A stretch of DNA of 64,000 nucleotides from an uncultured delta proteobacterium (GCA_963841435.1 CAWJCS010000005.1:1408001-1472000), one strand, 5' to 3'. Counted from the first letter of the stretch, positions 800 to 39,677 are shown. Translations and numbers: made by a program. The notes: generated by a model from the sequence alone, not told the origin.

Positions 800-2185
800 T
801 CAATGCGAGCAGTCGTTCAGCTCGGGGACCGGAACGGCGCGGAACCAGAACAGCTTGGCGAGAATCGGGTTCGGGGGTTGACCGAGCAAGGGGTCGTCGC
901 CTACGCGGGGCGCGACGTGCCGTACCCCGCGATATTCGTAGACGAGCTCGAGGTCGGGGCTGAAGGCCGCGAGCTGCTGCATCGCGAAGAAAGTGTACCG
1001 GGTCCCCTGGCGGCCCGACTCACTGAGGTCGTGGTCGCTCGACGAAACGATGCTCACGAGATCGTCCTGAAAATGGAACACGCGCATGGCGCGCGGCATG
1101 ACGAAGTGGTTCCAGAGCTCGCCCTCGGTCTGCACGTTGCTGAACATGGTGAAGCTCGATTCGGTCTTGAGTCCGAGGAAGGGGCAAAGGGCGTTGAGCG
1201 TCACCAAGATGGGCGTGATCCAGAGCCACCCGTTCATCGGCCTGAAACGCACGGGGGGCGCCACGAGCCGAGGCATCTTCAGCCACGCGAGCGCGACCAG
1301 CGTCACGAGACCGAGCGTGAAGGCGGCCCAGATGGCCTTGAAGAGAAGCAGGGTGAAGCGGCGGCGGAATGCGTCGTCCGGCACGACGAAGGGGAACACG
1401 CCGACCACGACGACGACCGCGGCGAGCACGATCGCCGCGCTGGCACGCCCCCGCGCGAGCCTCTGCACGAGGGCTACCACCCGACGGGACGCGCGCGAGC
1501 GAACGAGGACGTCACGCGCGCGCTCGACCAGCTCCGGCGGCGCGAACAGCGCATAGAGGGGGAGCAGCGACGCCGAGAAGTTGAAGAAGCCGTTGATGCC
1601 GAGAATCATATGGAAGAGCGTGCCCAAAATCAGCGTGATCGGGCGGGTCTTGCGCCAGAGCAGGGCGACCGGCAAGAGGCCCTCGACGACGAGCACCTGG
1701 TAGATCGAAAGCTCCCCTGCCCACGCTCCCTTCGGCAAAAACGGCAGCTTGTGCGCGAGCCAGTCGTACATCGTCCTCGAGCAGCTCACGTCGGGGTTGA
1801 AAAACCCTGCGTTGAGCTTCGCGAGCGTGACGCACACGTAGAGAATCACGAGATGCACGCGCAGCGTGGGTGCGAAGGTCTCGAACCAGTGCTCGCCGTC
1901 CAACTTCGCGCCACCCCGGCCGACGAGGCAGAGCGCCGCGATCAGGATCGTCAGGTCGCCGAAGCTGAGCAGCCACCAATGGTTCGTCTCGAACGGCAGG
2001 TGATACGCGAACGTCGCCAGCTGCACGCCGGCGAGCAGCACCGCGCTGCTCGGCAGCGGTCGAAGCAGCATCCAGAGCGCGGCGAGGTCGAGCGCGATGT
2101 CAACCGAAATGCCCGCGAAGTGCCCCGCCCGACCCTGGTGGATCAGGATCGCGAACGCCCAGAGAAACGTGAAGAGACGAAACAT
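800..2185 (-). CDS. Polytopic membrane protein, HTTM-like
   Basis: 461 aa with many TM segments; NH motif, AKLNAGFF..C and FHMILG resemble the HTTM domain; soluble C-terminal tail. Confidence 0.6.
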   Translation of the reverse strand: MFRLFTFLWAFAILIHQGRAGHFAGISVDIALDLAALWMLLRPLPSSAVLLAGVQLATFAYHLPFETNHWWLLSFGDLTILIAALCLVGRGGAKLDGEHWFETFAPTLRVHLVILYVCVTLAKLNAGFFNPDVSCSRTMYDWLAHKLPFLPKGAWAGELSIYQVLVVEGLLPVALLWRKTRPITLILGTLFHMILGINGFFNFSASLLPLYALFAPPELVERARDVLVRSRASRRVVALVQRLARGRASAAIVLAAVVVVVGVFPFVVPDDAFRRRFTLLLFKAIWAAFTLGLVTLVALAWLKMPRLVAPPVRFRPMNGWLWITPILVTLNALCPFLGLKTESSFTMFSNVQTEGELWNHFVMPRAMRVFHFQDDLVSIVSSSDHDLSESGRQGTRYTFFAMQQLAAFSPDLELVYEYRGVRHVAPRVGDDPLLGQPPNPILAKLFWFRAVPVPELNDCSH

Positions 2186-20945: not shown

Positions 20946-22589
20946 TCAGCTATTGGCGACGGAGAGCACCACGCCGAGGCGCTCCCCGGAAAAGGGCGCC
21001 AACGTTCGCGCCGACTCAGGCACGTTTTGTGGGTACGCGGCCACGACGCCATCCACCACGTCGCTCACGGCTCGGCACGCGACGTCTTCGGACAACGGGG
21101 GAGCGTTGACGATGATCACGTCGTAGTAAGGGCGCAGGGCAGCAACGCAATCTTCGAAGTGTGTCGAGAGGATCAGCTCGGGCGCCGTACGCGCCGACGG
21201 CAAGACGTGCAATGCCGGCGAGCACTTGAGAACGTACCAGTGCCCGTCGGCCGAACCGTCCACGCGGGCGGATAGCTGGGTTGCGAAGTCCGTTGCGGGC
21301 AGCACCACCAAGCCCAGCGCCGTCCCGAGACTGGGCTTGGCGAGATCCGCCTCGACGAGGAGCACTCTCGATGAATCGTCCTCGGCGAACGCGGCCGCGA
21401 GGCCCGCGCTGATTTCAGCCTTGGCCGCCGCGACAGCCGGCGTTGCCGTGACCCCGACCACGAAGCAATCCCCTTGAGCTAGGGCGCGCAGCTGCTCGCG
21501 GAGGGCATAGTACCGCTGCCGCCCGGGCACCGCCTCGGGACGCCAGGGCGTCGGGTAGGCCATCACGGGCGATTCGCCGGGAGGCGGCCCGCTCCCCGGT
21601 GCCCCGCTCGAGGGTCGAGCTTCGGCGCGTGGCGGCGGCGGCCCCGAGTCGAGCTCCGGGGAAGGCGGCACGGCGGGCTCGCCACCGGCCAGTCCGTCCA
21701 CGCTCAGCACCTGCGGCGCCTCCGCGACAGAAGACGGCGACAACGAGGGACTCGGCGGGGGCCGCGAGACCGCCGTGCCGGCACGTCGTGGCTCGAGCGA
21801 CGCTCGCCTGCGCGAAGCCGAGCGCTCGGCCCGCGGCGAACCCGCTGGCAAGAGCGCCACGATGAGCGAAAGCGCCAGCCCGATGCCGTAGAGCAGGGAG
21901 CGCTGCGGCTCGGACGGCGGCTGCTGCAGGCGGGCCTCGATGACCGGAGGCGTCGTCGGCTTGGTCGCGGATGGGGCCGCGGACGGCGGCGGCAACGCTT
22001 CGATGAGCTTCTGCAACTCGGGGAGCCCCGTCGTCGTCACCCCCTGGCGCGCGCGAGCCACCGATGCGAGGGAGCTGTCGATCTCGGCCAGCCGCCGCTT
22101 GAGCACGAGCGCCCGCGAGGGACGTGCCCGCTCGGAGTCGGCGAACGGATTGTCCGAGCCGGACGCGTCGCCACCACCTGGCCTCAGCCCATCGAGCTCG
22201 GCCTGGACGCGTTGGCGTTCCTGCTCGAGCACGACGCGATCGGTCGACGCGCTCTTCTGCGCGGGCTCGGCGGAGCGCGCGAGGTCCGGATGGCTCACGA
22301 GGTAGCTCACGAGCTGATCCTCGGCCTCCGCGGCGGGCGCGGGCTCGGCAGCCCGCGGGGCCGCGAGCGCCTCTGCACGCACGAAAGTGCGCTGGGCCGC
22401 GGCTCTGCACAGCTCCTCGGCGCGCGCCGCCGTGCGGTCCCGTCCGACGATGGGCACGCCATCGCCGCCCACGAGTGGAACGACCGCGCGCGCTGCGAAG
22501 ATTTGCGGCGACGTTTGGGCGAACGCGGCGAAAGCGCCGAAGGCGACCACCGCCCTGAGCACCCGCACGGCGACCCCCGCAGCCGTCAC
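20946..22589 (-). CDS. Wzc/PCP-like protein: TM, coiled coil, TM, Pro-rich linker, degenerate CpsD/CapB (BY-kinase-like) domain
   Basis: Two hydrophobic segments; C-terminal VVGVTA, RVLLVEADL, LHVLP, YYDVIIVNAPP, VDGVV. Confidence 0.65.
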   Translation of the reverse strand: MTAAGVAVRVLRAVVAFGAFAAFAQTSPQIFAARAVVPLVGGDGVPIVGRDRTAARAEELCRAAAQRTFVRAEALAAPRAAEPAPAAEAEDQLVSYLVSHPDLARSAEPAQKSASTDRVVLEQERQRVQAELDGLRPGGGDASGSDNPFADSERARPSRALVLKRRLAEIDSSLASVARARQGVTTTGLPELQKLIEALPPPSAAPSATKPTTPPVIEARLQQPPSEPQRSLLYGIGLALSLIVALLPAGSPRAERSASRRRASLEPRRAGTAVSRPPPSPSLSPSSVAEAPQVLSVDGLAGGEPAVPPSPELDSGPPPPRAEARPSSGAPGSGPPPGESPVMAYPTPWRPEAVPGRQRYYALREQLRALAQGDCFVVGVTATPAVAAAKAEISAGLAAAFAEDDSSRVLLVEADLAKPSLGTALGLVVLPATDFATQLSARVDGSADGHWYVLKCSPALHVLPSARTAPELILSTHFEDCVAALRPYYDVIIVNAPPLSEDVACRAVSDVVDGVVAAYPQNVPESARTLAPFSGERLGVVLSVANS

Positions 22590-24436
22590 GTTCCTGTCCC
22601 GCCCAGCACCACGGGCACCGTGCGCGCGAGGACGTAGAGGTCGAGCCAGGGCGACCAGTTGCGCACGTACTCAACGTCCATCTGCAGGCGCTGCTCGAAG
22701 GTGGATTCGTTGCGCCACGTCACCTGCCAGATGCCGGTGATGCCCGGCTTGACGCGCAAGATGATGGCTTCCTTCTGCTCCATGTCCGGGATCTCACGCT
22801 CGAGATACGGGCGCGGTCCGACGAGGCTCATCTCCCCGACCAGCACGTTCCAAAGCTGGGGCAGCTCGTCGAGGCTGTATTTGCGGAGAAAACGGCCGAT
22901 GCGCGTGACGCGAGGATCGTTGTTCAGCTTGTGAAACTGCTCGTATTCGACGGCGAGCATGGGATCGCGCTCGAGGATGCCGGCGAGGCGCTGCTCCGCA
23001 TCCTCGAACATGGTGCGGAATTTGAGCGCCGCGAAGCGGATCCCGTCCTGTCCGAGCCGCTTCTGCCGGTGAAACACCGGGCCCTTGGAGTCCAGCCGGA
23101 TCACGAACGCGAGGAGCATGAGGAGCGGCCACGTGATCAACAGCCCGATACTGGTAAGCGCCAGATCCATGGCGCGCTTGGCCGCCCGCGGACCGCGCAA
23201 CAAGAGCTGGCGCTGCACTTCGATGCCAAGCGCACCGCCGAGATAGCGCGTCGGCGCGCCGAAGTGCGTCAGGTTGAACAGGTCCGGAATGACCAGCACG
23301 TTGTGGTAGCTGTCCGCGAAACGCTCGATCACGCCGAGCATCGTGGACGCGTCCATTTCGGGCATGGCGAGCACGGCCGTCCGCACCTTGAGCCGCTGCG
23401 ACAGCGCGGGGGCAAGCTCCAGCCCGCCCACGATCGGAACGCCCTCGACCTCCGAGAACTGCTCGAGCGCGGATCGCTCGGACGGTGATTCCGCGTCCTC
23501 GGCATCGAACTCGCGGACGGGCTCGATCACGATGTCGTTTTCGCCCCAGGTGGCGCGCACCGTGCCCTGGCGCGCCGGATTGTCGTCGAGGATCGCGACG
23601 GGCTTCAGACCAAGCTGCGGACGCGCCTGCAGCATGGTGACGACCGCGCGCCCCACCTTGCCGGCGCCCATCACCACCACGGGCTGACCCCACCAGGGAG
23701 TGCGCGCCAGCGACGAGCGCAGAATGCCGCGCAACGTCGGCACGAGCACGATGGCGATCAACCACCCAATCGCCCAAGCCTCGTGGGAGACCGCGTAGAA
23801 CGAGACGACGCGCGTCAGCACGACGGCCATCCAGCAGCCGGCGTAGACGAGCGTGATCGAAGCCACCGAGCTGCGGATCTCGTCCGGCGGGCTCGGTGGC
23901 GTGACCGCGTACAGGCGAGACGCCGAGAACGCGGCCAGGCACAGGGGAACCACGGCGGCCAGGACGTAGATGGCGGCGTTCGACAGTCGATCGTGTGCGA
24001 CCAAGAACCAGAGCACGGCGGTGCCGAGCCCGAGCGACACGAGGTCGGACAGGACGAGCACGAGGCTGACGAGCCTTGGGCGGCAGCTCACCTGCAGCCA
24101 GCCAATCGACGGGTTCTCGCGAGCGCGCCGCGCGATGCTGCGGGCCTTGCCGCGAACGCGCGCGGTGTGCACTTGCTCGATCAGCGCTTCGGCGACGGCT
24201 CTCGCGTCGCACGCGCCGAGCCGACGCAGGATGGCGCCGATGTGCCCGCCGTTCTCGGCCTGGACGTGCAGCGCGTGACGGAGCTGTTCGGGCGTGATGA
24301 CACCCTTCCGGAGCAGCACCTGCCCGAGCTCGTTGTCTCGCCTCCGCCGACGGCGGTAAAAGGCGGGACTACTGTCCCTCGACTCCCGGGGCGCGTCGGG
24401 GGGCTGCACGAGCGCCGATGCCCGCCGCTTGCTCAC
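22586..24436 (-). CDS. wbaP: Priming undecaprenyl-phosphate phosphoglycosyl transferase (WbaP-like) with N-terminal MshEN-like domain
   Basis: [55 protein letters not shown]; four N-terminal TMs and a Rossmann-like domain. Confidence 0.9.
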
Positions 24437-24672
24437 GCAACGTCGAGACGGCCAACCCAGCTCGTCTTGGCCCCCTGGATGGCCGCGCGCGCGATAGCGA
24501 GCATGAGCCCCTCGTCGATACCCTGAACCTCGACAGAAACGGGGGGGACGCTGCGAAAGGTTCCAACCTTCACGTCGTCGAGTAGCCGGACCACCTCGTA
24601 GTGCCCCTCCGCAAGGCGCACCACGCGGTACGTCGTGCCGGCAACTTGAACCATACCCTTAACGACGCGCAT
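24433..24672 (-). CDS. Small hypothetical protein (79 aa), paralog 1
   Basis: 42/79 identical without gaps (manual count) to 36872..37111; its stop overlaps the wbaP start (GTGA). Confidence 0.85.
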   Translation of the reverse strand: MRVVKGMVQVAGTTYRVVRLAEGHYEVVRLLDDVKVGTFRSVPPVSVEVQGIDEGLMLAIARAAIQGAKTSWVGRLDVA

Positions 24673-24911
24673 GTGATTACTCTGCCTCGCCGAGCCATGG
24701 TCGTAGCTCGCATCATCTGCTTTGGGAAGGGGTACTTTTCGCTTTCTCCGAAACAGAACAGCCGAAACCGGAAACGCCCCAGTGCCGCTACCGGGTTGCG
24801 ACGCGCGAGAAATGAGCGCGCCACTCGGGACGGGCCGCGACGCTTTTCACCAAGCCTGCGGGTTGACACTGCCAGCGTATTCTCGCCGCCGGCCTATAGG
24901 CCGATCCGCCC

Positions 24912-26967
24912 ATGAGCCCCGCCCCGCCCCCACCGAGCTTCATGAAGTCGCTGCTCCGGGCAGTCGCCGCGGGTGCGGTCGTGTTCGCGGGCTTTCTTGG
25001 CTACGGCTACAGGGATCCTCCCGTTTTCGAGACGGGGGGCGAGCTCCGCGTCAGCGGTGCCCTGCCGAGCGAGGGGATGAATGCCGTCGTTGACCGGCTC
25101 GAGCGGACCATTTTCGATTCCGCGTTGCTTTCCCGCCTAGCGGCGGAAGCAGGCCCGCAGAGCGGGCAGGTCGCGGGGCTCAGGGTCGCGAGCGGCATCC
25201 GCTTCGAGCCTCGTCCGCCGGACCGAGTTCGCATCGTCTGCCGCAACCCCGACCCCGAGCGCCTCAAGTTCCTGTGCGACGCCGTCCTCACGGCCGTCAC
25301 CAAACGGGGCGCTGTGGCCGTCGCCGGAACCCAGTCGTCCTCCACGGCGCTCACCTCGAGCGTCGCCGATTCTGGCCGCCTACGCGCGCGCGCACCCGGA
25401 GCTCTTCCTGAGCGCCCGAAAGCCCCCGCCAAAGCCGGAATCCCTGGAGGAGCTGCGCCAAAAGACGGATGCCGTGCGCTCGGCGCGAGCGTCCAGCGTC
25501 CCGACGATCCCGACGCTGTCGTTCGAGGTGGCGATCCCAGTGGGCGGCGCCAAACCGCTCGGGGTGCCGCGCTCTGCCGTGCTGTTTGCGGGATTGTTCG
25601 GGGCGCTCGCGACGGCCTTCATCACCCTCATGGGCGAGTTCTTCCTGCTCCGGCGAGCTCAGGCGGCCGCGGCTCGCGAGAGCTTCTTGCTCGACGACGA
25701 GGACGACGAGCTCTCGAAGCCTTTTGCGCTCGCCCCCGCCCCGGAAACACAGCCGCCCCTCGCACTGCCACCCCGTTCAGTCCCGCCGCCGGCGGCGGCT
25801 GCCACTCCGGCCTCCGCGCCTCCTCCCGACACGTCAGACCCGCAGGTCGAATTCTCGGTCCCCCCGCCTGGCGTGACGGAGCCGACTTCTTCGGCGCCGC
25901 CGGGCGCCCCGCCCCGACCCGGCTCCTCGGCGCCGCCCGGCGCGCTCGCATCACCGATTCTACGCCGCGCACCAACCACGCCCGTCGTCGCCGTGCCGCC
26001 CGGCGGCGGGTCGTTCGTGCCACCATCCGCGCCGCCGGTCCCGGCCGTTGCCCCCACGGCAAGTGGCGAAAGTCCGGCTGAGGGACCCTCGACGATGCTT
26101 CCGCCGGCCAAGTCGAGCGACTCGGGTTTCCACGCCACGGTGACGTACGACGCGACCAACCTCGATGCGCGCCACCGAGAGCGCGGGGTACCCGTCACGC
26201 GCACCACGCAAATGCTCGGCTCACCGCTCTCGCCCGAGGCTCAACCCGTTTCGCGACCCTCCGGGCGAGTCCGCCAGGGCTCCGCCACGACTCGCTACAG
26301 CTTCGTGAGCACGCCACCACCAGCCGGGGGCGAGCCGGTGCGACCGCACGACGTGGGTCCGGATTGGAGCCCCGATCCGAGCATCGATCCCGCACCTTGC
26401 AGGCCGCTTTGTCGCGAGCTCTTCGCCTTCGGTGTCGAGCACTGTTTTGTGGTGGGCGTGACGGCGGTGCCCGGCCTCGATCGAGACAAGGCCGAGTTTT
26501 CCGCCGCGCTCGCGCTCGCGCTGTCCGCGACCGGTCACGCGCGCGTGTTGCTCGTCGAGGGTGACCTCGATGCCCCGCAACAACACACGTTCATGCGCGC
26601 CGAGATGCCCGAGGGGGAGAGCTTCTCGCGCCAGCTACAGGCGCACATGACGCGTCAGGCGGGCGAGCATTGGAGCGTGCTGCGCTGCACGAAGTCGCTG
26701 CACGTGCTCGTGGACGGCGAGGAGCACACGCCGGGGCTCATCCTCTCCCGCACGTTCGAGGAGTGCGTGCGGGCGCTCCGCGCGTACTACGACTTCATCG
26801 TGCTCGACGGTCCGACGGGCGCACGGGAATCGGAGTGCCGCGCGCTCGACGGCGTCATCGACGGGCTCATCGTGGTGTGCACCGAGGAAACACGAGCCAC
26901 CATCCCCGAAACGTCGCGCTACTTCACCACGAAGCGATTTTCCAAGGCGATCCGCGCAACGCGCTGA
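24912..26967 (+). CDS. Second Wzc/PCP-like protein with Pro-rich linker and degenerate BY-kinase-like domain; frameshift at about 25300-25370
   Basis: TM1 in ORF 24912; TM2, linker and CFVVGVTA/RVLLVEGDL/YYDFIVLDGP in ORF 25474..26967; C-terminal domain clearly paralogous to 20946..22589. Confidence 0.65.
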
Positions 26968-27058
26968 GCGGGCCCCGCGCCGTGAGGGCGGGTCCGAACG
27001 GCGCGCACGGACGCCTGGCCTGACGCCCCCGGGCGCCAGAGAGCGCGCGGTGCGTGCG

Positions 27059-28126
27059 TCACGTCGCGCGTTCGAGCGCCTCGACGATGCGCGAGGAAAC
27101 GCCAGGCGCCCCGTAGAGCTCCGGATGGTCCGTCGGGGGCGAGAGTGCGGCGCGCACGCCCGCTGCCAGACCTTCGGGGTCGACCAGGCGGTTCCAGCCC
27201 GCGTCGACGGTCTCGACCCACTCGGTCGTGTCCCGGACCGTGACGCATGGGCGCGCGAGCATGTACGCCTCCTTTTGCAGGCCGCCGCTGTCGGTGACGA
27301 CGACGCTCGCGGCGTCGAGCAGGGCGAGTAGGTCCAAAAAGCCCAGCGGCTCGAGTGCGCGCACGTTGGGACCGAACGAAACCCCGACCTGAGCGAGCAT
27401 CTTGCCGAGCCGCGGATGCACGGGAAGCACGACCGGGACGTCGAGCCGGCTGAAGGCGCGGGCAATCGCGCTCAGACGCGCGGGGTCGTCGGTGTTCGAG
27501 GCGCGGTGGATCGTAGCGAGAGCGAAGGGCACGCCGGGCGTGAGCCCCGTCTTCGCGAGCAGGGCGGGGGCCCGCTCCCTCGCCTTCGGAACGAACGTCC
27601 GGAGCACGTCGACGCGTACGTCGCCGACGTTGACGACGCCTTCGCTGATTCCTTCGCGCTCGAGATTTCCAAGCGCAGCCGTGGTCGGGGCCAAAAGCAG
27701 CGTCGAGAGATGGTCGGTGAGGACGCGATTGATCTCCTCGGGCATCTCGCGGTCGAAGCTGCGAAGCCCCGCCTCGATGTGCGCCACGCGGAAATGCAGC
27801 TTGGCGGCCGTGAGAGCGGCTGCGATCGTACTGTTCGTGTCGCCGAAGACGATCACCCAGTCCGGTCGCTCGCGAAGGAGCAGTGGTTCGAGCTTCACCA
27901 TCACCGCCGCCGTCTGCTCGGCGTGGCCGGCGCCAGCCGCCCCCACCTCGAGGTCGGCGTCGGGCTTCGGAATCTCGAGCTCCCGAAAGAAGACACGCGA
28001 CATTGCGTCGTCGTAGTGCTGGCCCGTATTGACGAAAATCTCGCGGTGCCGCTCGCGAATGACGTGACTGACGCGCGAGGTCTGGATGAACTCGGGTCGC
28101 GTGCCCGCGATCGTCACGCACTTCAT
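27059..28126 (-). CDS. wecB: Non-hydrolysing UDP-GlcNAc-type 2-epimerase (WecB/WbpI family)
   Basis: GTRPE, NTGQHYD, GDTNS, HIEAGLRSFD..MPEEINR, TDSGGLQKEA. Confidence 0.9.
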   Translation of the reverse strand: MKCVTIAGTRPEFIQTSRVSHVIRERHREIFVNTGQHYDDAMSRVFFRELEIPKPDADLEVGAAGAGHAEQTAAVMVKLEPLLLRERPDWVIVFGDTNSTIAAALTAAKLHFRVAHIEAGLRSFDREMPEEINRVLTDHLSTLLLAPTTAALGNLEREGISEGVVNVGDVRVDVLRTFVPKARERAPALLAKTGLTPGVPFALATIHRASNTDDPARLSAIARAFSRLDVPVVLPVHPRLGKMLAQVGVSFGPNVRALEPLGFLDLLALLDAASVVVTDSGGLQKEAYMLARPCVTVRDTTEWVETVDAGWNRLVDPEGLAAGVRAALSPPTDHPELYGAPGVSSRIVEALERAT

Positions 28127-29142
28127 GCGACGACCGACGACCGCGCGCCACCGAACGTAGCCGGCATCCCGTCGGCTCCGGATTTGACGAACGCGAGCGC
28201 GATGCGCAGTGTCTCGAGCCCGTCGGCGCCCGTCACCGTGGGCGGCCGCCGGTCCCGGACCGCCGCCACGAAGTCCGCGATCTCGGCGACGAGCGGCTCG
28301 TGGCGCTGGATGCGAATCCCGAGCACGTTCCCTTCGGTAACGCCGCGAAGCACGCTCAACGTGTCCCACTGGCTCGGTGCGCTCTCGTTCTCGTAAAAGA
28401 AGAGCTCCTGCGAGAGCAGGTTGCACTCGAACAGGCCGCGCGCCCCCGTGACGGTCAGGCGGCGCACCTTGGTCGGCGTCATCCAGTTCACGTCGAGCAC
28501 GCCGAGCGCGCCACCCTGGAAGCGCAAAAGGCCGTCGAACATGTCCTCGCGGTCGGAATTGATGCCCTGCAGCGTCTCGCCGTACAAGCGCACGATGGGC
28601 TCGGGCACGAGGTAGCGCATCAGGTCGATGTCGTGCGACGCGAGGTCGATCACGACTCCGGCGTCGCGAATGCGCGGCGGGTAGGGGCTGAGGCGCTGCG
28701 CCAGCACCTTGTAGATGCGCCCCGCCATGCCCTCGCGGAGGCGCCGCCTGAGCTCCATCACCGCGGGGTTGAAGCGCTCGATATGGCCCACGGCGAGCAC
28801 GACGCCCTTTTCCTCGGCGCGCGCTACGAGCTCTTCCGCTTGCGCCACCGTGCTGGCGATGGGCTTCTCCATGAGGACGTGCACGCCCTTGTCGATGAGG
28901 TGCATGCCGATCTCGTGATGCAGGCCGGTGGGCACCGCGACGCACACCAGATCGGGCGACGTGCTGTCGAGCAGCGCGTCGAGCGAGGGGAAAGAGGGCA
29001 CGTTGTGCAGGCCCGCCACGCGCGCCGCGGCCGCGGCATTCGTGTCGGCAACACCGACGAAGCTGACGCCATCCATGCCGTGCAACACGCGCGCGTGGTT
29101 CTGGCCGATTGCCCCAACCCCAATGACGGCTGCTTTCAACAT
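28123..29142 (-). CDS. Gfo/Idh/MocA oxidoreductase (WbpB/WlbA-like)
   Basis: IGVGAIG..H, VLMEKP, GHIERFNP, DLASHDID. Confidence 0.85.
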   Translation of the reverse strand: MLKAAVIGVGAIGQNHARVLHGMDGVSFVGVADTNAAAAARVAGLHNVPSFPSLDALLDSTSPDLVCVAVPTGLHHEIGMHLIDKGVHVLMEKPIASTVAQAEELVARAEEKGVVLAVGHIERFNPAVMELRRRLREGMAGRIYKVLAQRLSPYPPRIRDAGVVIDLASHDIDLMRYLVPEPIVRLYGETLQGINSDREDMFDGLLRFQGGALGVLDVNWMTPTKVRRLTVTGARGLFECNLLSQELFFYENESAPSQWDTLSVLRGVTEGNVLGIRIQRHEPLVAEIADFVAAVRDRRPPTVTGADGLETLRIALAFVKSGADGMPATFGGARSSVVA

Positions 29143-30218
29143 GCGGCATTCACCTCCGCCACGACGTACGCCCGCTCCTCGTCCGTGAGGCTCGGATGCA
29201 CGGGTAGGCTCATGACCTCCCGCGTGGCGCGTTCGGTCTCCGGTAAATCGAGACCCTGGTACGCGGGGCGGCGCGCGAAGACCGGCTGGCGATGGATCGG
29301 CAGCGGGTAGTAGACGCGTGCCCCCACGCCGCGCTCGTTGAGCCGCTCGAGAACGGCGTCCCGGTCGACGCCCTCGGGAACGCGAACCGTGTACTGGTGA
29401 TACACGTGGCCGTAGCCTGCCGGCACGCTCGGCACGCGAACGCGCTCGAGGTGGGCGTCGAAGTAGCGCGCGTTCTCGCGCCGCTTCTCCTGCCACGCCG
29501 GCAGTCGACCGAGCTGCACGAGACCGATCGCCGCGGCAGGATCGGTCATGCGGAAATTGTAGCCGACCACTTCGTGCAGGTACTGCGTGCTCATGCCCTG
29601 GTGGCGGATCATGCGAAGGAGCTCGGCAATGGCGTCGTCGTTGGTGAGCACCATGCCGCCCTCCGTCGTCGTCATGTTCTTCGTTGGGTAGAAGCTGAAC
29701 GACGCCGTACCGAAGGTGCCCACCGAGCGCCCGTCGAGCGTCGCCCCGTGAGCCTGCGCTGCATCCTCGAGCAGCACGAGCTTTCGCTCGCGACACAGCG
29801 CTTCGAAGCGTGGCATGTCGGCCGGCAGCCCATAGAGATGGACGGGCATGATGGCGCGGGTGTGCGGCGTGATCGCCGCTTCGGCAGCCGCGGGGCTCAG
29901 ACAGAACGTCGTCGCGTCGATATCGGCGAAAACCGGGGTGGCGCCGACGCTCAAGACGCACGACGCCGTCGCGAAGAAGCTGAAGGACGGAACGATGACC
30001 TCGTCACCGGGGCCGATTTCGTGCGCCATGAGGGCCGTGGTGAGCGCCGTCGTGCCGTTGCTCGTGGCGACGCCGTGTTTCGCCCCGTGATAGGCGGCGA
30101 ACGCGCGCTCGAACTCGGCGACACGTGGCCCCTGCGAGAGCTGGCCACTCGAGAGCGCGGCGAGCGCGGCCGCCTTTTCCTCTTCCCCCAAGAACGGACG
30201 TGCGATCGGAACTTGCAT
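29136..30218 (-). CDS. DegT/DnrJ/EryC1/StrS PLP aminotransferase (WbpE/WlbC-like)
   Basis: SNGTTAL, PVHLYG, EDAAQAHG, SFYPTKNMTTTEGG, GYNFRM; alternative start at 30257. Confidence 0.9.
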   Translation of the reverse strand: MQVPIARPFLGEEEKAAALAALSSGQLSQGPRVAEFERAFAAYHGAKHGVATSNGTTALTTALMAHEIGPGDEVIVPSFSFFATASCVLSVGATPVFADIDATTFCLSPAAAEAAITPHTRAIMPVHLYGLPADMPRFEALCRERKLVLLEDAAQAHGATLDGRSVGTFGTASFSFYPTKNMTTTEGGMVLTNDDAIAELLRMIRHQGMSTQYLHEVVGYNFRMTDPAAAIGLVQLGRLPAWQEKRRENARYFDAHLERVRVPSVPAGYGHVYHQYTVRVPEGVDRDAVLERLNERGVGARVYYPLPIHRQPVFARRPAYQGLDLPETERATREVMSLPVHPSLTDEERAYVVAEVNAAC

Positions 30219-30253
30219 GCGACGCCCCTCAGTACGGTGTGGGGCGGAGGGTG

Positions 30254-30808
30254 TCAACGAGCGTCATCGAGCGCTTCCTCCAGGGTGCGCACCGGTTCTC
30301 CGGAGCGCGTCACGAAGCCCACCTGGCGTGCGGGGTTGCCGATGACGAGCGCGTGATCGGCGACGTGGCGCGTGACGACGCTTCCCGCCCCCACCATCGC
30401 CCAGAGCCCGATCGTGACGCCGCACACGATGGTGCTGTTCGCACCGAGCGAAGCCCCGCGGCGCACGACGGTCTCCTTGAGCACCCAGTCGTCCGCCGCC
30501 TTGAGGCTATGATCGGGGTTGATGGCACGCGGCCTGAGGTCGTTCGTGAAACACACGTGCGGGCCGACGAAAACACCGTCCTCGAGCGTCACGCCGTGGA
30601 ACACGGAAACGTAGTTCTGGATCTTGACGCGGTCGCCGACGCGAACCCCGGCGTCAACGAACACGCCGCGGCCGAGCACGCAATCTTGCCCGATGCGAGC
30701 CCCGCGCCGCACGTGGCAAAGGTGCCAAATCTTCGTGCCTTCGCCGACCTGGGCCCCTTCCTCCACCTCGGCGCTCGGATGAACGAACATGGTCTTCTCG
30801 ACTAGCAC
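30254..30808 (-). CDS. Hexapeptide-repeat N-acetyltransferase (WbpD/WlbB-like)
   Basis: IWHLCHV, KIQNYVS, VFVGP...FTND..PR, GANSTIVCG, GNPAR; ATG alternative at 30790. Confidence 0.88.
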   Translation of the reverse strand: MLVEKTMFVHPSAEVEEGAQVGEGTKIWHLCHVRRGARIGQDCVLGRGVFVDAGVRVGDRVKIQNYVSVFHGVTLEDGVFVGPHVCFTNDLRPRAINPDHSLKAADDWVLKETVVRRGASLGANSTIVCGVTIGLWAMVGAGSVVTRHVADHALVIGNPARQVGFVTRSGEPVRTLEEALDDAR

Positions 30809-30891
30809 GCCGGAACGGTCGCCGTCATGGGTACCAATTCCGGCCCCCGAGGTCCGGCTCCCATCCGGCGACCTGAGTCAGCGTGACCCAT

Positions 30892-32203
30892 TCAGCCGCC
30901 GAGCAGCGGAGGATCAACCCGTCCGATGCGCTGCACGAGGTACGCGACGCCGGCCAGAATCCACAGGAACTGGGCCACCTGGTCAACACGCGGTCGCGCT
31001 CCACGGATGCTGCGAGCCACCAGCATCACGAGCAGCGGAACCTCGTAGTATTTTTGGTAGCACATGCGCACGCTCGCAAACGAGAGCCCGAACAGCACGA
31101 CGTACGCCACGTAGACAACGTCGCGCTCGACGACGCCCTCCCAGAACGTCGGAAAGCCCCACGGCGAGCAACCCCACGAGCAGCGTGCTCGCGCCGAATA
31201 GCTCGGGGAACCGGTCGCTGATGAACCAGATGAACCCGCCGTCGGTGAACAGCGACTCGTGGCGCAAGCCGCTCACGATGCCCACGAAAAGCGCGACGGG
31301 AGCCACCACGGCGAGCCGCCGCGGCGCGCAGAGCCGTGGCAATCGCGAAGGGCCCACCACCAGCAGGTACAGGCCGAGCAGCGCGAAAGAGAACGCGATG
31401 GCCTTCGCGTTGAGGCCACGCGCTTGGTTCACGTCGTGCCAGTTTTGCGGCACGAAGCCACCCCATACGACGAAGAACGGCAGGCACGCCGCGATCGGCA
31501 AGAGGAAGGGCAGCGCCGTTCGGACGGGAAAGCCCGAAAGCCCACCGGCCAGGCGCCCGCCGCTCGCGAGGCGCGGCGCCCAGAAGTCGCGCGTCGCGGC
31601 GAGGGCCAAGAACGGACAGGCCCAAAGCCAGCTTTGCCGGGTCAATGCCGCGAGCGAGAGCAAGACCGCCGCGACGAGCGGCGACCGGGGGCCACGCGAC
31701 CCGGGCAGGAGCCAAGGACGCGCGGCCAGCCAGAACCAGAGGTACGAGTAGTTCTCCGTCAAGAGCACGAAGCCACGCGCCGCCATGTACGGCGACGCGA
31801 CCACGGTCCCCGTGCCGAGCCATGCCACGACGCGTCCGCCCGCGCGCCTGAGATCCGCGAAGACGATCGCCGAGAAGACGAGCACGATCGAAAGGTTCGC
31901 GAGGCGCAGCACCCAGCGGCTCGCGCCGAGCGCATCGAGCGGCGCGAGCGTCAGGTGGAAAAACGGCGTCGTCGCGGACGAGTAAGCCTTGCCGTCGACC
32001 GGGAAGCGCCCCTCGGCATATTCGTGAATCAGGCCGTAGTGGAGGCGTTCGTCCGTGTAATGAAGAACCTGCAGGGGCTCGCCGCGCGACCACGTGTAAA
32101 AGAAGATCGGCAGGAGGACCGCGGCGACCGCGGCGGCAAAGAGCAGGGTCTCGCGCTCCGGCCAAAGCGACGCTTCTACCCGCGGCGTAACGAGCGCGCT
32201 CAT
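30892..32203 (-). CDS. GT-C-like polytopic membrane protein; frameshift at about 31150
   Basis: YTDERLH and TTP in the first loop, LR..N, LTEN, RQ; C-terminus (YQKYYE) continues in ORF 30892..31110. Confidence 0.55.
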
Positions 32204-32286
32204 GCTCGGGAGGTTACTCGTCTCGGAGCGAAACGAAGAGCCTTGCGGTCGAGCGGTAACCCGCCTACGAGGTGGCTTTACGCGTC

Positions 32287-33156
32287 ATGAAGGGCATCAT
32301 CCTCGCTGGCGGGAGCGGCACTCGCCTCTATCCCTTGACCCGGGTCGTGTCGAAGCAGCTTCTGCCCGTCTACGACAAGCCCATGATTTACTACCCACTC
32401 TCGGTGCTTCTGCTCGCCGGGATCCGGGACATCCTCGTGATCTCGACGCCCACCGATCTGCCGCTCTTCCAGCGGCTGCTCGGCAGCGGTGCCGACCTCG
32501 GCGTGAGCTTCAGCTACGCCGAGCAACCCCAGCCCAACGGGCTCGCGGAGGCGTTCATCATCGGGCGATCGTTCGTCGGGTCGAGCCCGGCAAGCTTGAT
32601 CCTCGGCGACAACATCTTCCACGGCGCGGGCCTCTCGTTGCTCTTGCGCGAGGCGCGCGCCGCCATCGACGGTTGCGTGCTCTTCGGATACCGCGTGGAC
32701 GATCCCGAGCGCTACGGCGTTGCCGAGCTCGACGCGAAGGGCAACGTCCTCACGATCGAGGAGAAGCCGAAGCAGCCGAAATCCGAGATCGCCGTCACTG
32801 GCCTCTATTTTTACGACAACGACGTGTGCGATATCGCGCGTACCCTCAAGCCTTCGGCACGGGGCGAGCTCGAGATCACCGATCTGAACAACGTGTACAT
32901 CGCGCGGGGCAAGGCGAAGCTCCGCGTCATGGCCCGCGGCATGACCTGGCTCGACACCGGCACGCCGGCGAGCCTGCTCGAAGCCGCGCAGTTCGTGCAC
33001 GTGCTCGAAGCGCGGCAGGGAACGCACATCGCGTGCCTCGAGGAGATCGCCTACCGGATGGGCTTCATCGACGCGGCCGGCCTCGAACGGGTCGCCACCA
33101 CGCACGGCAAGAGCCAGTACGGCGCCTACCTCCGCTCGCTGCTGCCACGGAGCTGA
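32287..33156 (+). CDS. rmlA: Glucose-1-phosphate thymidylyltransferase
   Basis: [46 protein letters not shown]. Confidence 0.96.
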
Positions 33157-33166
33157 AGGGCGCCCC

Positions 33167-33724
33167 ATGCAGGTCGAAGCGCTGTCCTTGCCCGGGCTCG
33201 TCCTGATCCGTCCGCGCGTCTTCCGCGACGAACGAGGTTTCTTCCTGGAGAGCTACCACGCGCCTCGCTTTCACGCGGCGGGCATCGATTGCCAGTTCGT
33301 ACAGGACAACCATTCCCGCTCCGTGAAGGATACGCTGCGCGGCCTCCACTACCAGTCGTCGCCGGGGCAAGCGAAGCTCATGCGCGTGGCGAGCGGTCGC
33401 ATCTTCGACGTCGGCGTGGACATCCGCCCCGGCTCACCCACCTTCGGCAAGTGGGAGGGCGTGTACCTCGACGCCGAGGAGCACGCCCAGCTCTTCGTGC
33501 CCGTCGGTTTCGCACATGGATTTTGCGTCGTGAGCGACACCGCCAACGTCACCTACAAGGTGAGCAGCGTGTACGAGGCAACCACCGAGTGCACCCTGAG
33601 CTGGGACGACCCGGACATCGGCGTGCGCTGGCCGACGGCCACCCCGCTGCTTTCCGCACGTGATCAGCGGGGCGAGAGCTTTCGCGACTATGCCGCCCGA
33701 ATGGGGAGCCCCCTCGATGCGTAA
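33167..33724 (+). CDS. rmlC: dTDP-4-dehydrorhamnose 3,5-epimerase
   Basis: DERGFFLE, QDNHS.S, LRGLHYQ, GFAHGF. Confidence 0.95.
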   Translation: MQVEALSLPGLVLIRPRVFRDERGFFLESYHAPRFHAAGIDCQFVQDNHSRSVKDTLRGLHYQSSPGQAKLMRVASGRIFDVGVDIRPGSPTFGKWEGVYLDAEEHAQLFVPVGFAHGFCVVSDTANVTYKVSSVYEATTECTLSWDDPDIGVRWPTATPLLSARDQRGESFRDYAARMGSPLDA

Positions 33725-34766
33725 CCCGAAATCCCTCCTCGTTACCGGCGGCTGCGGCTTCATCGGCTCGGCGTTCGTGCGCCAGCTGTTCGGCGCGCTC
33801 GGCTTCGCGGGCCGCGTCGTGAACCTCGACCTTTTGACGTACGCCGGCAATCCCGACAACGTGAGCGGCGCCGTCAACCCCGCGCGCTACTTCTTCCAAA
33901 AGGGCGACATTGCGGACCAGGATCTCGTGGTCAAGCTCATCGAGGACCACGGCATCGACACCATCGTGAACTTCGCCGCCGAGTCCCACGTGGACCGCAG
34001 CATCGTCGCGCCGGGCTCGTTCATCGAGACCAACGTGGTCGGCACTTTCAAGCTGCTCGAGGCGGTGCGCAAGCAGCCGCAGGTCCACTTCCACCATGTC
34101 TCGACCGACGAGGTGTACGGCTCACTCGGCGCCACGGGCGCCTTCCGCGAAGACACGCCGTATCACCCGAACTCCCCCTATTCCGCCTCGAAGGCGGCAT
34201 CCGACCATCTCGTGCTCGCCTACGCCCACACCTACGGGCTCTCGGTCACGATCTCGAACTCTAGCAACAACTACGGCCCGTTCCAGTTCCCGGAAAAGCT
34301 CGTTCCGCTGATGATTTTGAAGCTTTTCGCGGGTGAGTCGCTGCCCGTGTACGGGGACGGGATGAACGTGCGCGACTGGCTCTACGTCGACGACCACGTG
34401 GAGGCGATCTGGACCATCCTCTGCCGCGGCCGTTCGAGCGAGACGTACAACGTCGGAGGCGAAGGCGAGCGCACGAACCTCGACGTGATTCGCGAGCTCA
34501 TCGACGTGGTGTCGCGGGAGACCGGCAAGCCGCGCGACGAATTCCAGAAGCTCGTCACCTTCGTGAAGGATCGGCCGGGCCACGACCAGCGCTACGCCAT
34601 CGACTTTTCGAAGCTCGAGAGCGAGCTCGGCTGGACGCCGCGCCATGACCTGGCCGCGGGGCTCGCGAGCACGGTGAGCTGGTACCGCGAGAACACCACC
34701 TGGCTCGAGCGCGTGCAGACCGGCGCCTATCGCGAGTGGCTGGCCAAGAACTACGACGGGCGCTGA
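33717..34766 (+). CDS. rmlB: dTDP-glucose 4,6-dehydratase
   Basis: TGGCGFIG, FAAESHVDRSI, STDEVYG, PYSASKA, NNYGP.QFPEK, DRPGHD.RY. Confidence 0.96.
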   Translation: MRNPKSLLVTGGCGFIGSAFVRQLFGALGFAGRVVNLDLLTYAGNPDNVSGAVNPARYFFQKGDIADQDLVVKLIEDHGIDTIVNFAAESHVDRSIVAPGSFIETNVVGTFKLLEAVRKQPQVHFHHVSTDEVYGSLGATGAFREDTPYHPNSPYSASKAASDHLVLAYAHTYGLSVTISNSSNNYGPFQFPEKLVPLMILKLFAGESLPVYGDGMNVRDWLYVDDHVEAIWTILCRGRSSETYNVGGEGERTNLDVIRELIDVVSRETGKPRDEFQKLVTFVKDRPGHDQRYAIDFSKLESELGWTPRHDLAAGLASTVSWYRENTTWLERVQTGAYREWLAKNYDGR

Positions 34767-34813
34767 GCGCGCGAGCCGGGCACCAGAGGACTGCGCGCCC
34801 GGAGGGTGCGCCC

Positions 34814-36625
<1,812 letters not shown>

Positions 36626-36640
<15 letters not shown>

Positions 36641-36686
36641 ACAGTTCGATCAGATTGTGCAAGGCGTCAAGGATCAAACTGTGCAA
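36626..36686. repeat. Three direct 15-bp repeats, GATCAAACTGTGCAA (candidate enhancer/UAS)
   Basis: Exact copies at 36626-36640 and 36672-36686; GATCAGATTGTGCAA at 36648-36662. Confidence 0.85.
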
Positions 36687-36791
36687 CCCGTGCCAGTCCT
36701 CGTTGACCGTATTTCCAGGTTCCTAGATAAACTCATTGGAATCAACGCCCTGCTGGAATTAGGCCGGCCAGTCGTATGCCACTAACCCACG

Positions 36792-36807
36792 TGGTATGGA
36801 ACCTGCT
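36792..36807 (+). promoter_or_regulatory. Candidate sigma54 -24/-12 promoter
   Basis: TGGTATGGAACCTGCT has correct GG-N10-GC spacing; lies 65 nt upstream of ATG 36872 and divergent from an enhancer-binding protein gene. Confidence 0.6.
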
Positions 36808-36871
36808 ACTCAACGTCGCGTGCCGCCCAGAGGCACAGATTCGAAAGATTCGAAAGGAAGAGCGAGAAGCG

Positions 36872-37111
36872 ATGCAGGCAGTTAAGGGCATGGTTCAAGT
36901 CGATGGCGTCACCTACCGGATCGTCCGGGTGGGAGCGGCCCGCTACGACGTGATCCGCGTCCTGGACGACGCCCGAGTGGGCTCGTTCCAGAGCGCGCCG
37001 ACTTTCGAGCTGAAGGCCGAGCGGATCGAGGAACCGACGCTGCGCGAGGTCGCGCGAACCGCCATCCAGCGCGCCAAGACGAGCTGGGTCGGCCGGCTCG
37101 TGCTCGCTTGA
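36872..37111 (+). CDS. Small hypothetical protein (79 aa), paralog 2
   Basis: Same length as, and 42/79 identical to, 24433..24672; purine-rich sequence upstream. Confidence 0.85.
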   Translation: MQAVKGMVQVDGVTYRIVRVGAARYDVIRVLDDARVGSFQSAPTFELKAERIEEPTLREVARTAIQRAKTSWVGRLVLA

Positions 37112-38323: not shown

Positions 38324-38636
38324 TCATTCGAACGAGCACAGGTACTCGGTGATCCCTTCGGCAACCTCGATATCGAATCCCGAGCTCGGCGGGACGTTCG
38401 AACGAGGCCCCCTGCGGAACCTCGCGCCACGTATCACTGCCAGAAAGCCGCACGCGACACCTTCCGGCAACGATCTGCATGCGCTCCGCGCGGTCGGTAT
38501 CGAAGTGGAAGGAGCCCGGGTAGATGAGCCCGAGCGTCTTTCGCTGGCCGTCCGAAAGGAGCAGCGTGTGGGAGACCACCTTACCTTCGAAGTAGACGTT
38601 GGCCTTGGCGAGGGCGGTAACGTTCTCGAGCTTCAT
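38324..38636 (-). CDS. ppnP: Pyrimidine/purine nucleoside phosphorylase (DUF1255); frameshift at about 38398
   Basis: KANVYFEGKVVSH, KTLGLIYPG; removing one A gives FDVPPSSGFDIEVAEGITEYLCSFE-stop, 103 aa. Confidence 0.85.
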
Positions 38637-38726: not shown

Positions 38727-39677
38727 ATGACGGGTGGCCGCAAGCGTTACCGCGTGCTGATGGTCGAGGACAGCCGCGTCAGCCTCGAGGTATACGCGCA
38801 GCGTCTCGAGCGTCGGGGCTACATCGTGGCCACGGCAATTTCGGCGGAAGAGGCACGTGCGGAGCTCGAGAACGGCATCCCTGATCTCGTGCTGCTCGAC
38901 GTCTTCATGCCGAAGGTGAGTGGGTTCGACTTCTTGCGTGAGCTGCGCAGCGCCCCTCGCACCGCCACGGTCCCCATCATCCTCATTTCGGCGCTCTCGG
39001 ACACTCAGCACATCGTCGAAGGGCTCGAGCTCGGCGCAAACGACTACGTCACGAAGCCGATCGTCATGCCCATCCTTACGGCGCGCATGGAAGCGCTCCT
39101 GCGCGCGAGTGAGCTCGTGCGGCGCCTCGAGGTGCAGACCGAGCTCCTGTCGAAGCTCGCGGCGTTCGACGACCTCACGGGGGTCTACAACCGCCGCTCG
39201 ATGTTCCACCACCTCGAGGCCGAGCTCAGCCGCTGCCGGCGCTACGGGCGAAGCCTCGCCGTCTTGATGGTGGATATCGATCATTTCAAGAAGGTCAACG
39301 ATCAGCACGGGCACCTGATTGGTGATCAGGCACTGCGTTGGGTGGCCACGACGCTGCAGAACGAGCTTCGTTCGATGGACTTCCTGTGTCGCTACGGCGG
39401 CGAGGAATTCTGCGCCATCCTGCCGGAGACCAATCAACCGGGAGCGGCGCGTGCCGCCGAGCGGTTGCGCGCCTCACTCGATCGGCAAGCGTTCGCGACC
39501 GATGACGTGAGCCTCGGCATCACGGTGTCGGTAGGCGGCGCGAGCTGGACGCCGATTGCCAAGGAAGAGGTCCCAGACCTTCTCGCGCGCGCCGACCGCG
39601 CCCTTCTGGACGCCAAGCGCTCCGGAAGGAACCGGGTACAGATCGCCAACGACGAGCAGACGATCTCCGCGAGCTGA
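38727..39677 (+). CDS. Response regulator diguanylate cyclase (REC-GGDEF)
   Basis: VEDS..LLDVFMP..DYVTKP; D.LTG.YNRR, DIDHFKKVND.HGH, RSMD (I-site) then GGEEF, AKRSGRNR. Confidence 0.93.
   Translation: MTGGRKRYRVLMVEDSRVSLEVYAQRLERRGYIVATAISAEEARAELENGIPDLVLLDVFMPKVSGFDFLRELRSAPRTATVPIILISALSDTQHIVEGLELGANDYVTKPIVMPILTARMEALLRASELVRRLEVQTELLSKLAAFDDLTGVYNRRSMFHHLEAELSRCRRYGRSLAVLMVDIDHFKKVNDQHGHLIGDQALRWVATTLQNELRSMDFLCRYGGEEFCAILPETNQPGAARAAERLRASLDRQAFATDDVSLGITVSVGGASWTPIAKEEVPDLLARADRALLDAKRSGRNRVQIANDEQTISAS

Follow-up and report, generated by a model that had tools for sequence, protein, structure and literature searches.

The window analysed here is a stretch of 64,000 nucleotides (G000:C5:1408001-1472000; 68% GC) from a genome of 7.78 Mb in 6 contigs, whose owner, to judge from the source labels of homologs, is probably a soil myxobacterium of an uncultured Polyangiaceae-like genus. 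The window harbours a Wzx/Wzy-type polysaccharide locus, which a Pfam and NCBIfam map places at about positions 800-34800. Within it, the gene for a WbaP-type phosphoglycosyl transferase shares an operon with the gene for a small protein of 79 amino acids (small1); a paralog of the latter (small2), a sigma-54-dependent activator and a diguanylate cyclase are found towards one end of the locus and beyond. This module is real and conserved in one subclade of the genus. The favoured explanation, to which a probability of roughly one half is assigned as a whole, is that the locus contains a core of genes which initiate and control a Wzx/Wzy-dependent pathway and are linked to cyclic di-GMP (c-di-GMP): the activator would drive small2, and WbaP would carry a predicted c-di-GMP receptor domain. 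An earlier note on this DNA had proposed a control module of c-di-GMP and sigma-54 built into the locus, with the small proteins as dedicated accessory factors.

The gene map was built from GC3 frame plots and from Pfam and NCBIfam matches. The operon runs on the minus strand from small1 (24433..24672) through WbaP (22586..24436) to PCP1 (20946..22589), the last encoding a polysaccharide co-polymerase of the PCP-2A-like type. Start and stop codons overlap as GTGA at 24433-24436 and 22586-22589, exactly as the earlier note had read them, and because this holds at both junctions the three genes are translationally coupled. The activator gene (34814..36532, minus strand) sits about 12 kb from the operon and diverges from small2 (36872..37111, plus strand), beyond which the cyclase (38727..39677, plus strand) follows. 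The cyclase is of the PleD/DmxB REC-GGDEF type (Response_reg 90 bits, GGDEF 161 bits) and its GGEEF motif and RxxD I-site are intact, in agreement with the earlier note. Seventeen GGDEF genes exceed the Pfam cut-off in the 7.78 Mb, and rough arithmetic predicts one within 3 kb of a given point approximately 1% of the time; chance is therefore a poor explanation for the position of the cyclase.

The order RibBA, REC-GGDEF, DAO, small2, divergent activator, sugar cargo, small1, WbaP is retained in all five contiguous cases (the window, G005, G637, G642 and G649), with a distance between the activator end and small1 of 0.3 kb in G649, ∼2.4 kb in G637 and G642, ∼6.4 kb in G005 and ∼10 kb in the window. 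A short contig of G014 accommodates the activator, small2, DAO and the cyclase, and the cyclase ortholog lies within 5 kb of a small gene in seven of the eight genomes that possess it. WbaP with the N-terminal domain described below, of the MshEN_N type, is present in 37 of 47 genus genomes. In the 24 genus genomes compared for both, 17 contain the small family and MshEN-WbaP, 4 contain neither and 3 the small family only, these last being 63%, 67% and 93% complete; presence and absence thus agree in 21 of 24, in genomes that are kin, so that the counts are not independent. Lack of co-occurrence in relatives had been named in advance as grounds for abandoning the module, and these counts, like the constant gene order, speak for keeping it.

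Evidence for regulation comes from the DNA between the activator and small2. The activator displays a Sigma54_activat domain (216 bits) with the GAFTGA motif, a Fis-type HTH_8 domain and an N-terminal FHA domain in Pfam. The deposited gene call and the orthologs set its true start at 36532, which is M37 of a 608-residue reading. Three direct repeats GATCARAYTGTGCAA at 36626, 36648 and 36672 (36626..36686, plus strand), spaced by 22 and 24 bp, form a candidate enhancer, or upstream activating sequence: two or more near-matches within 80 bp occur solely here in the 7.78-Mb genome, and the 9-mer core of the repeats is found 21 times in total, 3 of them at this site. A sigma-54-type element, GG-N10-GC, matching 8 of 11 consensus positions, follows at 36793..36808 (plus strand), its first base 80 nt before the ATG of small2. 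All six orthologous intergenic regions contain 2-4 TGTGCA repeats with a spacing of 21-24 bp and a sigma-54-type element of 8-10 out of 11 positions (9-10 in the other orthologs), which starts 49-80 nt before the small2 ATG; by subtraction, the repeats of the six loci lie roughly 90-160 bp upstream of the element. Read from the sequence, repeats and GG-N10-GC have the classic layout of an enhancer-dependent promoter. Together with rpoN, which is present in the genome, with the -24/-12 promoter and with the upstream sites, the domain composition identifies the protein as a sigma-54 enhancer-binding protein.

Because repeats and promoter sit upstream of small2 only, the activator most likely drives small2 and not the biosynthesis operon. 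It is quite probable, given this layout, that the activator attaches to the repeats and switches on small2 by way of sigma-54, and small2 is probably its direct target, likely the sole one in this genome. The start of small2 was set at the ATG at 36872, since orthologs begin there and the promoter lies within the longer frame; the gene thus corresponds to the C-terminal 79 residues of a 111-residue open reading frame (ORF) at 36776-37111. A scan of the window with the sigma-54 consensus produced 36 matches versus 56 expected, and no sigma-54 promoter conserved across orthologs was detected upstream of small1-type genes. A different conserved block, CCCTTCCCAAA, is located at 24700-24760 (minus strand), ∼40-70 nt upstream of small1, and is followed after ∼17 nt by GCTA; it is kept in 4-5 of 6 orthologous loci and may serve as an operator or as a promoter of a type other than sigma-54.

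Between its FHA and AAA+ domains the activator contains a degenerate GGDEF domain (residues 128-255 of the 608-residue reading; 35876..36259, minus strand; Pfam E 1.5e-4). A profile built from 18 class-wide homologs of this middle domain retrieved GGDEF structures from the PDB with a best E of 2.4e-9, mostly diguanylate cyclases. In the PDB alignment the RxxD of the activator stands opposite the I-site and AADEY opposite the GGDEF motif. The RxxD precedes the GGDEF position by exactly five residues and is shared by 59 of 62 homologs, even at identities as low as 32%, and the GGDEF position is never canonical in the 62, which show A/S/G-x-x-E-Y variants. The protein accordingly lacks the GG[DE]EF of an active cyclase and possesses the GGDEF-fold homology and RxxD spacing of an I-site receptor, as the earlier note had anticipated; the FHA domain and the revised start are additions to that description. 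Binding of c-di-GMP at this predicted site is rated slightly better than an even chance. Across the class, the combination of FHA and cryptic GGDEF is encountered in 77 of the 251 genomes, a single genome containing as many as 9 matches (loci L054-L072), in open frames typical of sigma-54 activators. The full architecture with sigma-54 is not named in the source labels listed, and in the window protein the GGDEF part escapes detection by Pfam; such activators may constitute a large overlooked family of c-di-GMP-responsive transcription factors.

The second predicted receptor is WbaP itself. The protein passes TIGR03022 (444.5 bits, cut-off 403), contains a Bac_transf catalytic domain (PF02397, 221.8 bits) and, according to transmembrane (TM) prediction and an AlphaFold2 (AF2) model, has four TM segments, a cytoplasmic domain and a re-entrant helix, which places it among the large monotopic phosphoglycosyl transferases. 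The region at residues 293-326, inspected for the dimerisation beta-hairpin discussed in PMC12802240, is modelled with a predicted local distance difference test score (pLDDT) below 50. An MshEN_N domain comprises two motifs of 24 residues separated by a linker of about 5 and recognised by a curated model, and this pattern is found at residues 37-88 (24173..24328, minus strand), where NF053729, 'cyclic di-GMP-binding domain, MshE-related', gives 49.7 bits for a cut-off of 38; the MshEN-like WbaP of the earlier note is thereby borne out. In phmmer searches of the PDB, WbaP matches the MshEN domain of Thermus PilF (E 4.1e-15), Vibrio MshE (E 0.0064) and an entry entitled 'c-di-GMP binding domain of PilF' (E 3.3e-4). 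At the N-terminus Pfam T2SSE_N gives no match, the only hit there being a sub-threshold DUF4388. The AF2 model has four helices here at a pLDDT of about 80, preceding the four TM helices. Genome-wide, 13 motifs of the NF053729 type were found, 6 of them over the cut-off, and that of WbaP ranks third.

The deposited gene call for WbaP (577 residues) begins 39 residues further in. The long start is favoured because 59 orthologs of 575-651 residues keep that N-terminus almost residue for residue; the motif region is almost invariant among them, including the c-di-GMP contacts at hydrophobic, Gly and Gln positions. All 61 database proteins sharing the N-terminal region are Bac_transf proteins, and outside the genus the full-length form was found in 4 genomes of two sister genera. 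The MshEN_N-type domain of WbaP is thus conserved, cytoplasmic and placed ahead of the first membrane helix. That it binds c-di-GMP is a prediction, for which the odds appear to lie a little above even.

The two small proteins, which the earlier note had regarded as copies of one gene, are indeed related, with 42 of 79 residues identical (53%, E 6e-30). Neither matches Pfam or NCBIfam, even at E 10. In a set of 5.8 billion proteins 289 homologs were found; the 120 listed measure 73-108 residues, mostly 77-81, and contain no Pfam domain. A profile search of 1.84 billion representatives returned 266 clusters, and among the 150 listed, of 60-246 residues, there was no fusion protein hinting at a function. 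The AF2 model of small1 consists of five strands and one helix (pLDDT 84) and leaves the almost invariant C-terminal tail of the family unstructured. Foldseek found no match to this model in the PDB below E 0.3, the best Z in a wide VIA-align search was 6.0, to parts of acetyltransferases and within the noise range, and a homolog used as query in the ESM Atlas scored no higher than 0.80, which is chance level. Complex predictions for small1 with full-length WbaP and the kinase-like domain of PCP1 scored 0.25, 0.35 and 0.27 against a mark of 0.32, values that weigh neither for binding nor against it.

Four copies of the small family are present in the genome of the window and the family occurs in 20 of 24 other genus genomes, with 1-6 matches per genome. 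No member was found in 16 genomes from other families of the same order, nor did a profile find one in another 400 genomes of the phylum, 29 of which belong to the same family, with only 13 first-look candidates scored per genome. Among the genomes searched the family is lineage-specific, being restricted to this genus. Of the 28 small-family loci in relatives, 8 immediately precede MshEN-WbaP and 7 immediately precede WecG, the latter accompanied by a convergent PCP-like gene; a further 2 diverge from the activator, and the other 11 are elsewhere. In five genomes of the WecG type, MshEN-WbaP is about 5 kb off on the same contig. A neighbour scan covering 10 of the 11 other loci identified 2 upstream of NUDIX genes, 3 by DsbA, 1 by a PMT_2 glycosyltransferase and 1 by a Ser/Thr kinase, with single cases beside DUF4388/TPR and MutS, beside HXXSHH, and as a head-to-head pair of small genes. 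In locus L027 (G022:C812:6308-6780) two small-family genes lie head to head on opposite strands, ∼20 bp apart, without a recognisable neighbour. A tree built from 40 copies is short and offers little resolution: WecG-adjacent (100/99) and NUDIX-adjacent (99/82) copies form groups, activator-adjacent copies group weakly (74/76) and WbaP-adjacent copies make up an unresolved backbone. The family is enriched at glycan-initiation genes without being exclusive to them.

The remaining two copies of the host genome have other surroundings, one near two kinases and an FHA activator and one near a PP2C phosphatase and a large membrane protein. The former, the third small copy (L005:6863-10228; G000:C5 ∼187-191 kb), lies upstream of a Ser/Thr kinase gene with a second kinase nearby, and the FHA sigma-54 activator convergent to it has no GGDEF-like domain.

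The favoured explanation can be set out as a sequence of proposed steps. Phosphorylation of its receiver would switch on the cyclase, which makes c-di-GMP. Binding of c-di-GMP at the RxxD of the activator, combined with a phospho-threonine input through the FHA domain, would enable the activator, bound at the three repeats, to start transcription of small2 from its sigma-54 promoter. The same c-di-GMP would bind the MshEN_N domain of WbaP and tune the first committed step. Small2 would then be a signal-induced paralog, small1 the paralog made together with the enzyme. The most speculative step is that the small proteins act on the WbaP and co-polymerase machine, as EpsW does on EpsZ in Myxococcus; this suggestion is drawn by analogy and is offered tentatively, as a thing that is possible and somewhat unlikely.

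Several observations weigh against this scheme, and the first set concerns c-di-GMP itself. Position 1 of the two WbaP motifs is Glu and His, not Arg or Lys, in every ortholog that covers it, and these residues fall outside even the relaxed [RKPN] of PMC5013675; read by eye, motif 2 departs at two more positions, with Arg and Cys where hydrophobic residues are expected, and motif 1 otherwise fits. The middle domain of the activator obtains 22.1 bits for Pfam GGDEF, under the cut-off of 23.8. These features would be explained if both receptor-like domains were blind to c-di-GMP, the MshEN_N domain serving as a protein-protein or dimerisation module and the GGDEF-like domain as a spacer or dimeriser, with the activator controlled by Ser/Thr kinases through FHA alone and the cyclase unrelated. 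Many MshEN domains have lost c-di-GMP binding (PMC5013675), the FHA domain is present, the activator near the third small copy dispenses with a GGDEF-like domain and has two kinases flanking, and in G013 the cyclase stands by RibBA without the module. Arginine at position 1 is, however, not obligatory, because the c-di-GMP-binding PilF domain of known structure has Lys and Leu at the two first motif positions in the PDB alignment, and variants in charged residues of MshEN alter affinity at most fivefold (PMC5013675). The contact positions are retained and NF053729 is passed, the correctly spaced RxxD has persisted in nearly all activator homologs, and the cyclase is linked in seven of eight genomes. 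A c-di-GMP-blind locus is therefore possible and on balance rather unlikely.

Transcription of the polymer genes is a separate matter. Searches upstream of small1-WbaP and elsewhere in the locus brought up neither a sigma-54 promoter nor a repeat cluster, and control of the polymer genes by the activator consequently lacks support. The earlier note had envisaged c-di-GMP gating both transcription of the pathway and its first committed step: the receptor-like domains are genuine and conserved, and the transcriptional half of that idea is not supported for the biosynthesis genes, promoter and repeats having been found at small2 only.

The second set of difficulties concerns the small proteins. 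Their paralogs adjoin genes for NUDIX, DsbA, PMT_2, kinases and other proteins, and the four sister-genus genomes with MshEN-WbaP have zero small-family matches; the claim that the small proteins are dedicated to this locus is thus abandoned. They could instead be general small regulators or adaptors of the genus, for instance transcription factors or partners of envelope enzymes, which merely often come first in an operon and have no specific role for WbaP. The variety of contexts, with 1-6 matches per genome, and the context-specific subfamilies by WecG and NUDIX are in keeping with this, as is the occurrence of the enzyme without them in sister genera. Yet 17 of the 28 loci in relatives adjoin WbaP, WecG or this activator, MshEN-WbaP is close by in the five WecG-type genomes, small1 and WbaP overlap by stop and start, the four genus genomes without the small family also lack MshEN-WbaP and, as weak evidence, no DNA-binding fold was recognised in the small-protein model. 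A general adaptor role is accordingly regarded as doubtful, at about the same level as c-di-GMP blindness.

Kinship is the third difficulty. An activator ortholog is present in 6 of 47 genus genomes and a cyclase ortholog in 8 of 47, so that the full module is confined to one subclade, and the conserved order may partly reflect the close relationship of its members. In G636 the cyclase is accompanied by a GH9 gene, DAO, small1 and WbaP, with activator and small2 missing; in G013, RibBA and the cyclase stand alone. That there is no functional module at all, the cyclase, DAO, ppnP and riboflavin genes being housekeeping genes beside which a polysaccharide island was inserted in one subclade, is clearly unlikely: RibBA adjoins REC-GGDEF in eight of eight genomes, including G013 with no island within 8.6 kb, and the cargo between activator and small1 varies freely among close kin, but the activator-small2 pair, equipped with an enhancer and promoter of its own, is invariably situated between the cyclase and small1-WbaP, activator and WbaP both bear domains of c-di-GMP type, and no gene of the block is better conserved than the cyclase (79-82% identity versus 62-74% for RibBA).

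A c-di-GMP-linked control core remains the favoured explanation. In a bolder version the 79-residue proteins would be regulators of a new class, acting on large monotopic phosphoglycosyl transferases: an activator gated by c-di-GMP and kinases, with one private promoter, would make small2, which would sit alongside the co-translated small1, or displace it, on a WbaP that also serves as a receptor for c-di-GMP. This is quite improbable as it stands; if true, it would be the first post-translational action of c-di-GMP on the initiating enzyme of a Wzx/Wzy pathway, within a two-tier feed-forward switch.

The co-polymerases complete the core. PCP1 has TM segments at residues 1-24 and 229-251 and a Pro-rich linker, and its GTG start overlaps the WbaP stop. 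Its C-terminal domain is distantly similar to bacterial tyrosine (BY) kinases (TIGR03018 E 4.5e-9, far under the cut-off), with weak but specific PDB matches to BceF (E 9e-4), CapA1/CapB, VpsO and Wzc. The second PCP-2A-like gene, PCP2 (24912..26967, plus strand), is divergent from the operon. In the family models TIGR03018 and TIGR01007 the two proteins score 34-36 bits versus cut-offs of 108-231, and both display the PCP-2A architecture of two TM segments around a periplasmic domain followed by a BY-kinase-like cytoplasmic P-loop domain. Intact BY-kinases are recognised by a Walker A GK[ST], acidic residues in Walker A' and B, and a C-terminal Tyr cluster. Read by eye, GK[ST] is replaced by AKA in PCP1 and DKA in PCP2, Walker A' is ExD and Walker B of PCP1 has Asn; each protein has 1 Tyr in its last 40 residues. 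Neither thus retains the catalytic motifs of a BY-kinase and, because the P-loop is broken, the acidic Walker residues are partly replaced and the Tyr tail is missing, 'pseudokinase', the term used in the earlier note, is a fair label for both on sequence grounds.

PCP2 is a real plus-strand gene, as previously described, and is not a single intact frame as assembled: homology to the G005 ortholog runs in frame 3 to 25328 and in frame 1 from 25372. The ortholog is one uninterrupted ORF of 697 residues, and the frame change is probably an assembly indel error rather than a real break. A second broken frame is seen in a ppnP-like gene (38327-38636, minus strand) between DAO and the cyclase, which changes frame at about 38397 directly after a G5 run; its N-terminal part covers positions 2-71 of Pfam Ppnp (E 6.8e-24) and its C-terminal part, in another frame, positions 71-92 (E 0.024). 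This makes assembly indels the likelier cause of the PCP2 break as well.

The rest of the locus is of the Wzx/Wzy type, with a Wzx flippase, an OPX exporter, GT2 and GT4 transferases, a deacetylase and WecG. The nucleotide-sugar genes are gathered in a variable cargo at 27059..34766 (mixed strands; Pfam and TM counts), which is shorter or missing in orthologous loci. It comprises a UDP-GlcNAc 2-epimerase, a GFO/IDH/MocA-family oxidoreductase, a DegT aminotransferase, a hexapeptide acyltransferase, an ORF with 8 TM segments that is possibly Wzy, one unknown ORF, RmlC and RmlB. Two ORFs, at 30983-32203 and 800-2185 (both minus strand), have ∼8 and ∼10 hydrophobic segments and no Pfam or NCBIfam match; they may be Wzy polymerases or O-antigen-ligase-like proteins. 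Rfam gives zero matches in the whole window and so no c-di-GMP riboswitch.

The components can be compared with characterized systems. Dead GGDEF domains with an I-site, of the PelD type, act as c-di-GMP receptors for polysaccharide output, and sigma-54-type activators such as FleQ and VpsR respond to c-di-GMP; here these features are joined in one polypeptide behind an FHA domain. A search of open-access full text found no description of an FHA/degenerate-GGDEF/sigma-54 activator. The closest regulatory parallel is found in Myxococcus xanthus, where an exopolysaccharide locus of the Wzx/Wzy type encodes EpsI/Nla24, an NtrC-like sigma-54 activator that binds c-di-GMP; the REC-GGDEF cyclase DmxB supplies the signal (PMC4877007). 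In EpsI/Nla24 there is a receiver domain, and the c-di-GMP site is believed to lie in the AAA+ domain (PMC4877007), whereas the window activator has FHA and a degenerate GGDEF with RxxD, and its only evident promoter target is a 79-residue gene and not eps-type genes.

In the same organism EpsW activates EpsZ, a WbaP-type transferase, post-translationally at the first committed step (PMC12802240). The pair proposed here would likewise consist of a small cytoplasmic single-domain protein and a large monotopic WbaP-type transferase; EpsW is a phosphorylated receiver domain (PMC12802240), whereas the 79-residue protein has no REC match and a different predicted fold. MshEN domains fused to a polysaccharide enzyme or its tyrosine-kinase-like partner are represented by NfrB of Escherichia coli (GT2-MshEN) and EpsG of Methylobacillus (MshEN_N-AAA_31; PMC5013675; PMC8669469). 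The fusion in the window differs in its partner, a Bac_transf/WbaP protein of the Wzx/Wzy pathway, and in the Glu or His as first motif residue. MshEN-Bac_transf is not among the architectures of supplementary Table 4 of PMC5013675, a paper that refers to Pfam architecture pages for further combinations. Open-access full text contained nothing joining MshEN with WbaP or a phosphoglycosyl transferase, and the open-access literature on c-di-GMP receptors and WbaP, judged by the titles and abstracts listed, contained no such fusion. The earlier note had not recognised the combination from characterized systems. The overall logic is already known from EpsI/Nla24-DmxB, EpsW-EpsZ and NfrB; the novelty lies in the variant parts, and the system as a whole belongs to a kind already described.

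Control by c-di-GMP is well known for synthase-dependent polysaccharide pathways. The post-translational control of Wzx/Wzy pathways is incompletely understood (PMC12802240). The activator, one private enhancer and promoter and a 79-residue gene would form a compact circuit. If WbaP has its own MshEN domain, the reach of c-di-GMP would be widened to include the first committed step, at which undecaprenyl phosphate is consumed, in the commonest type of pathway.

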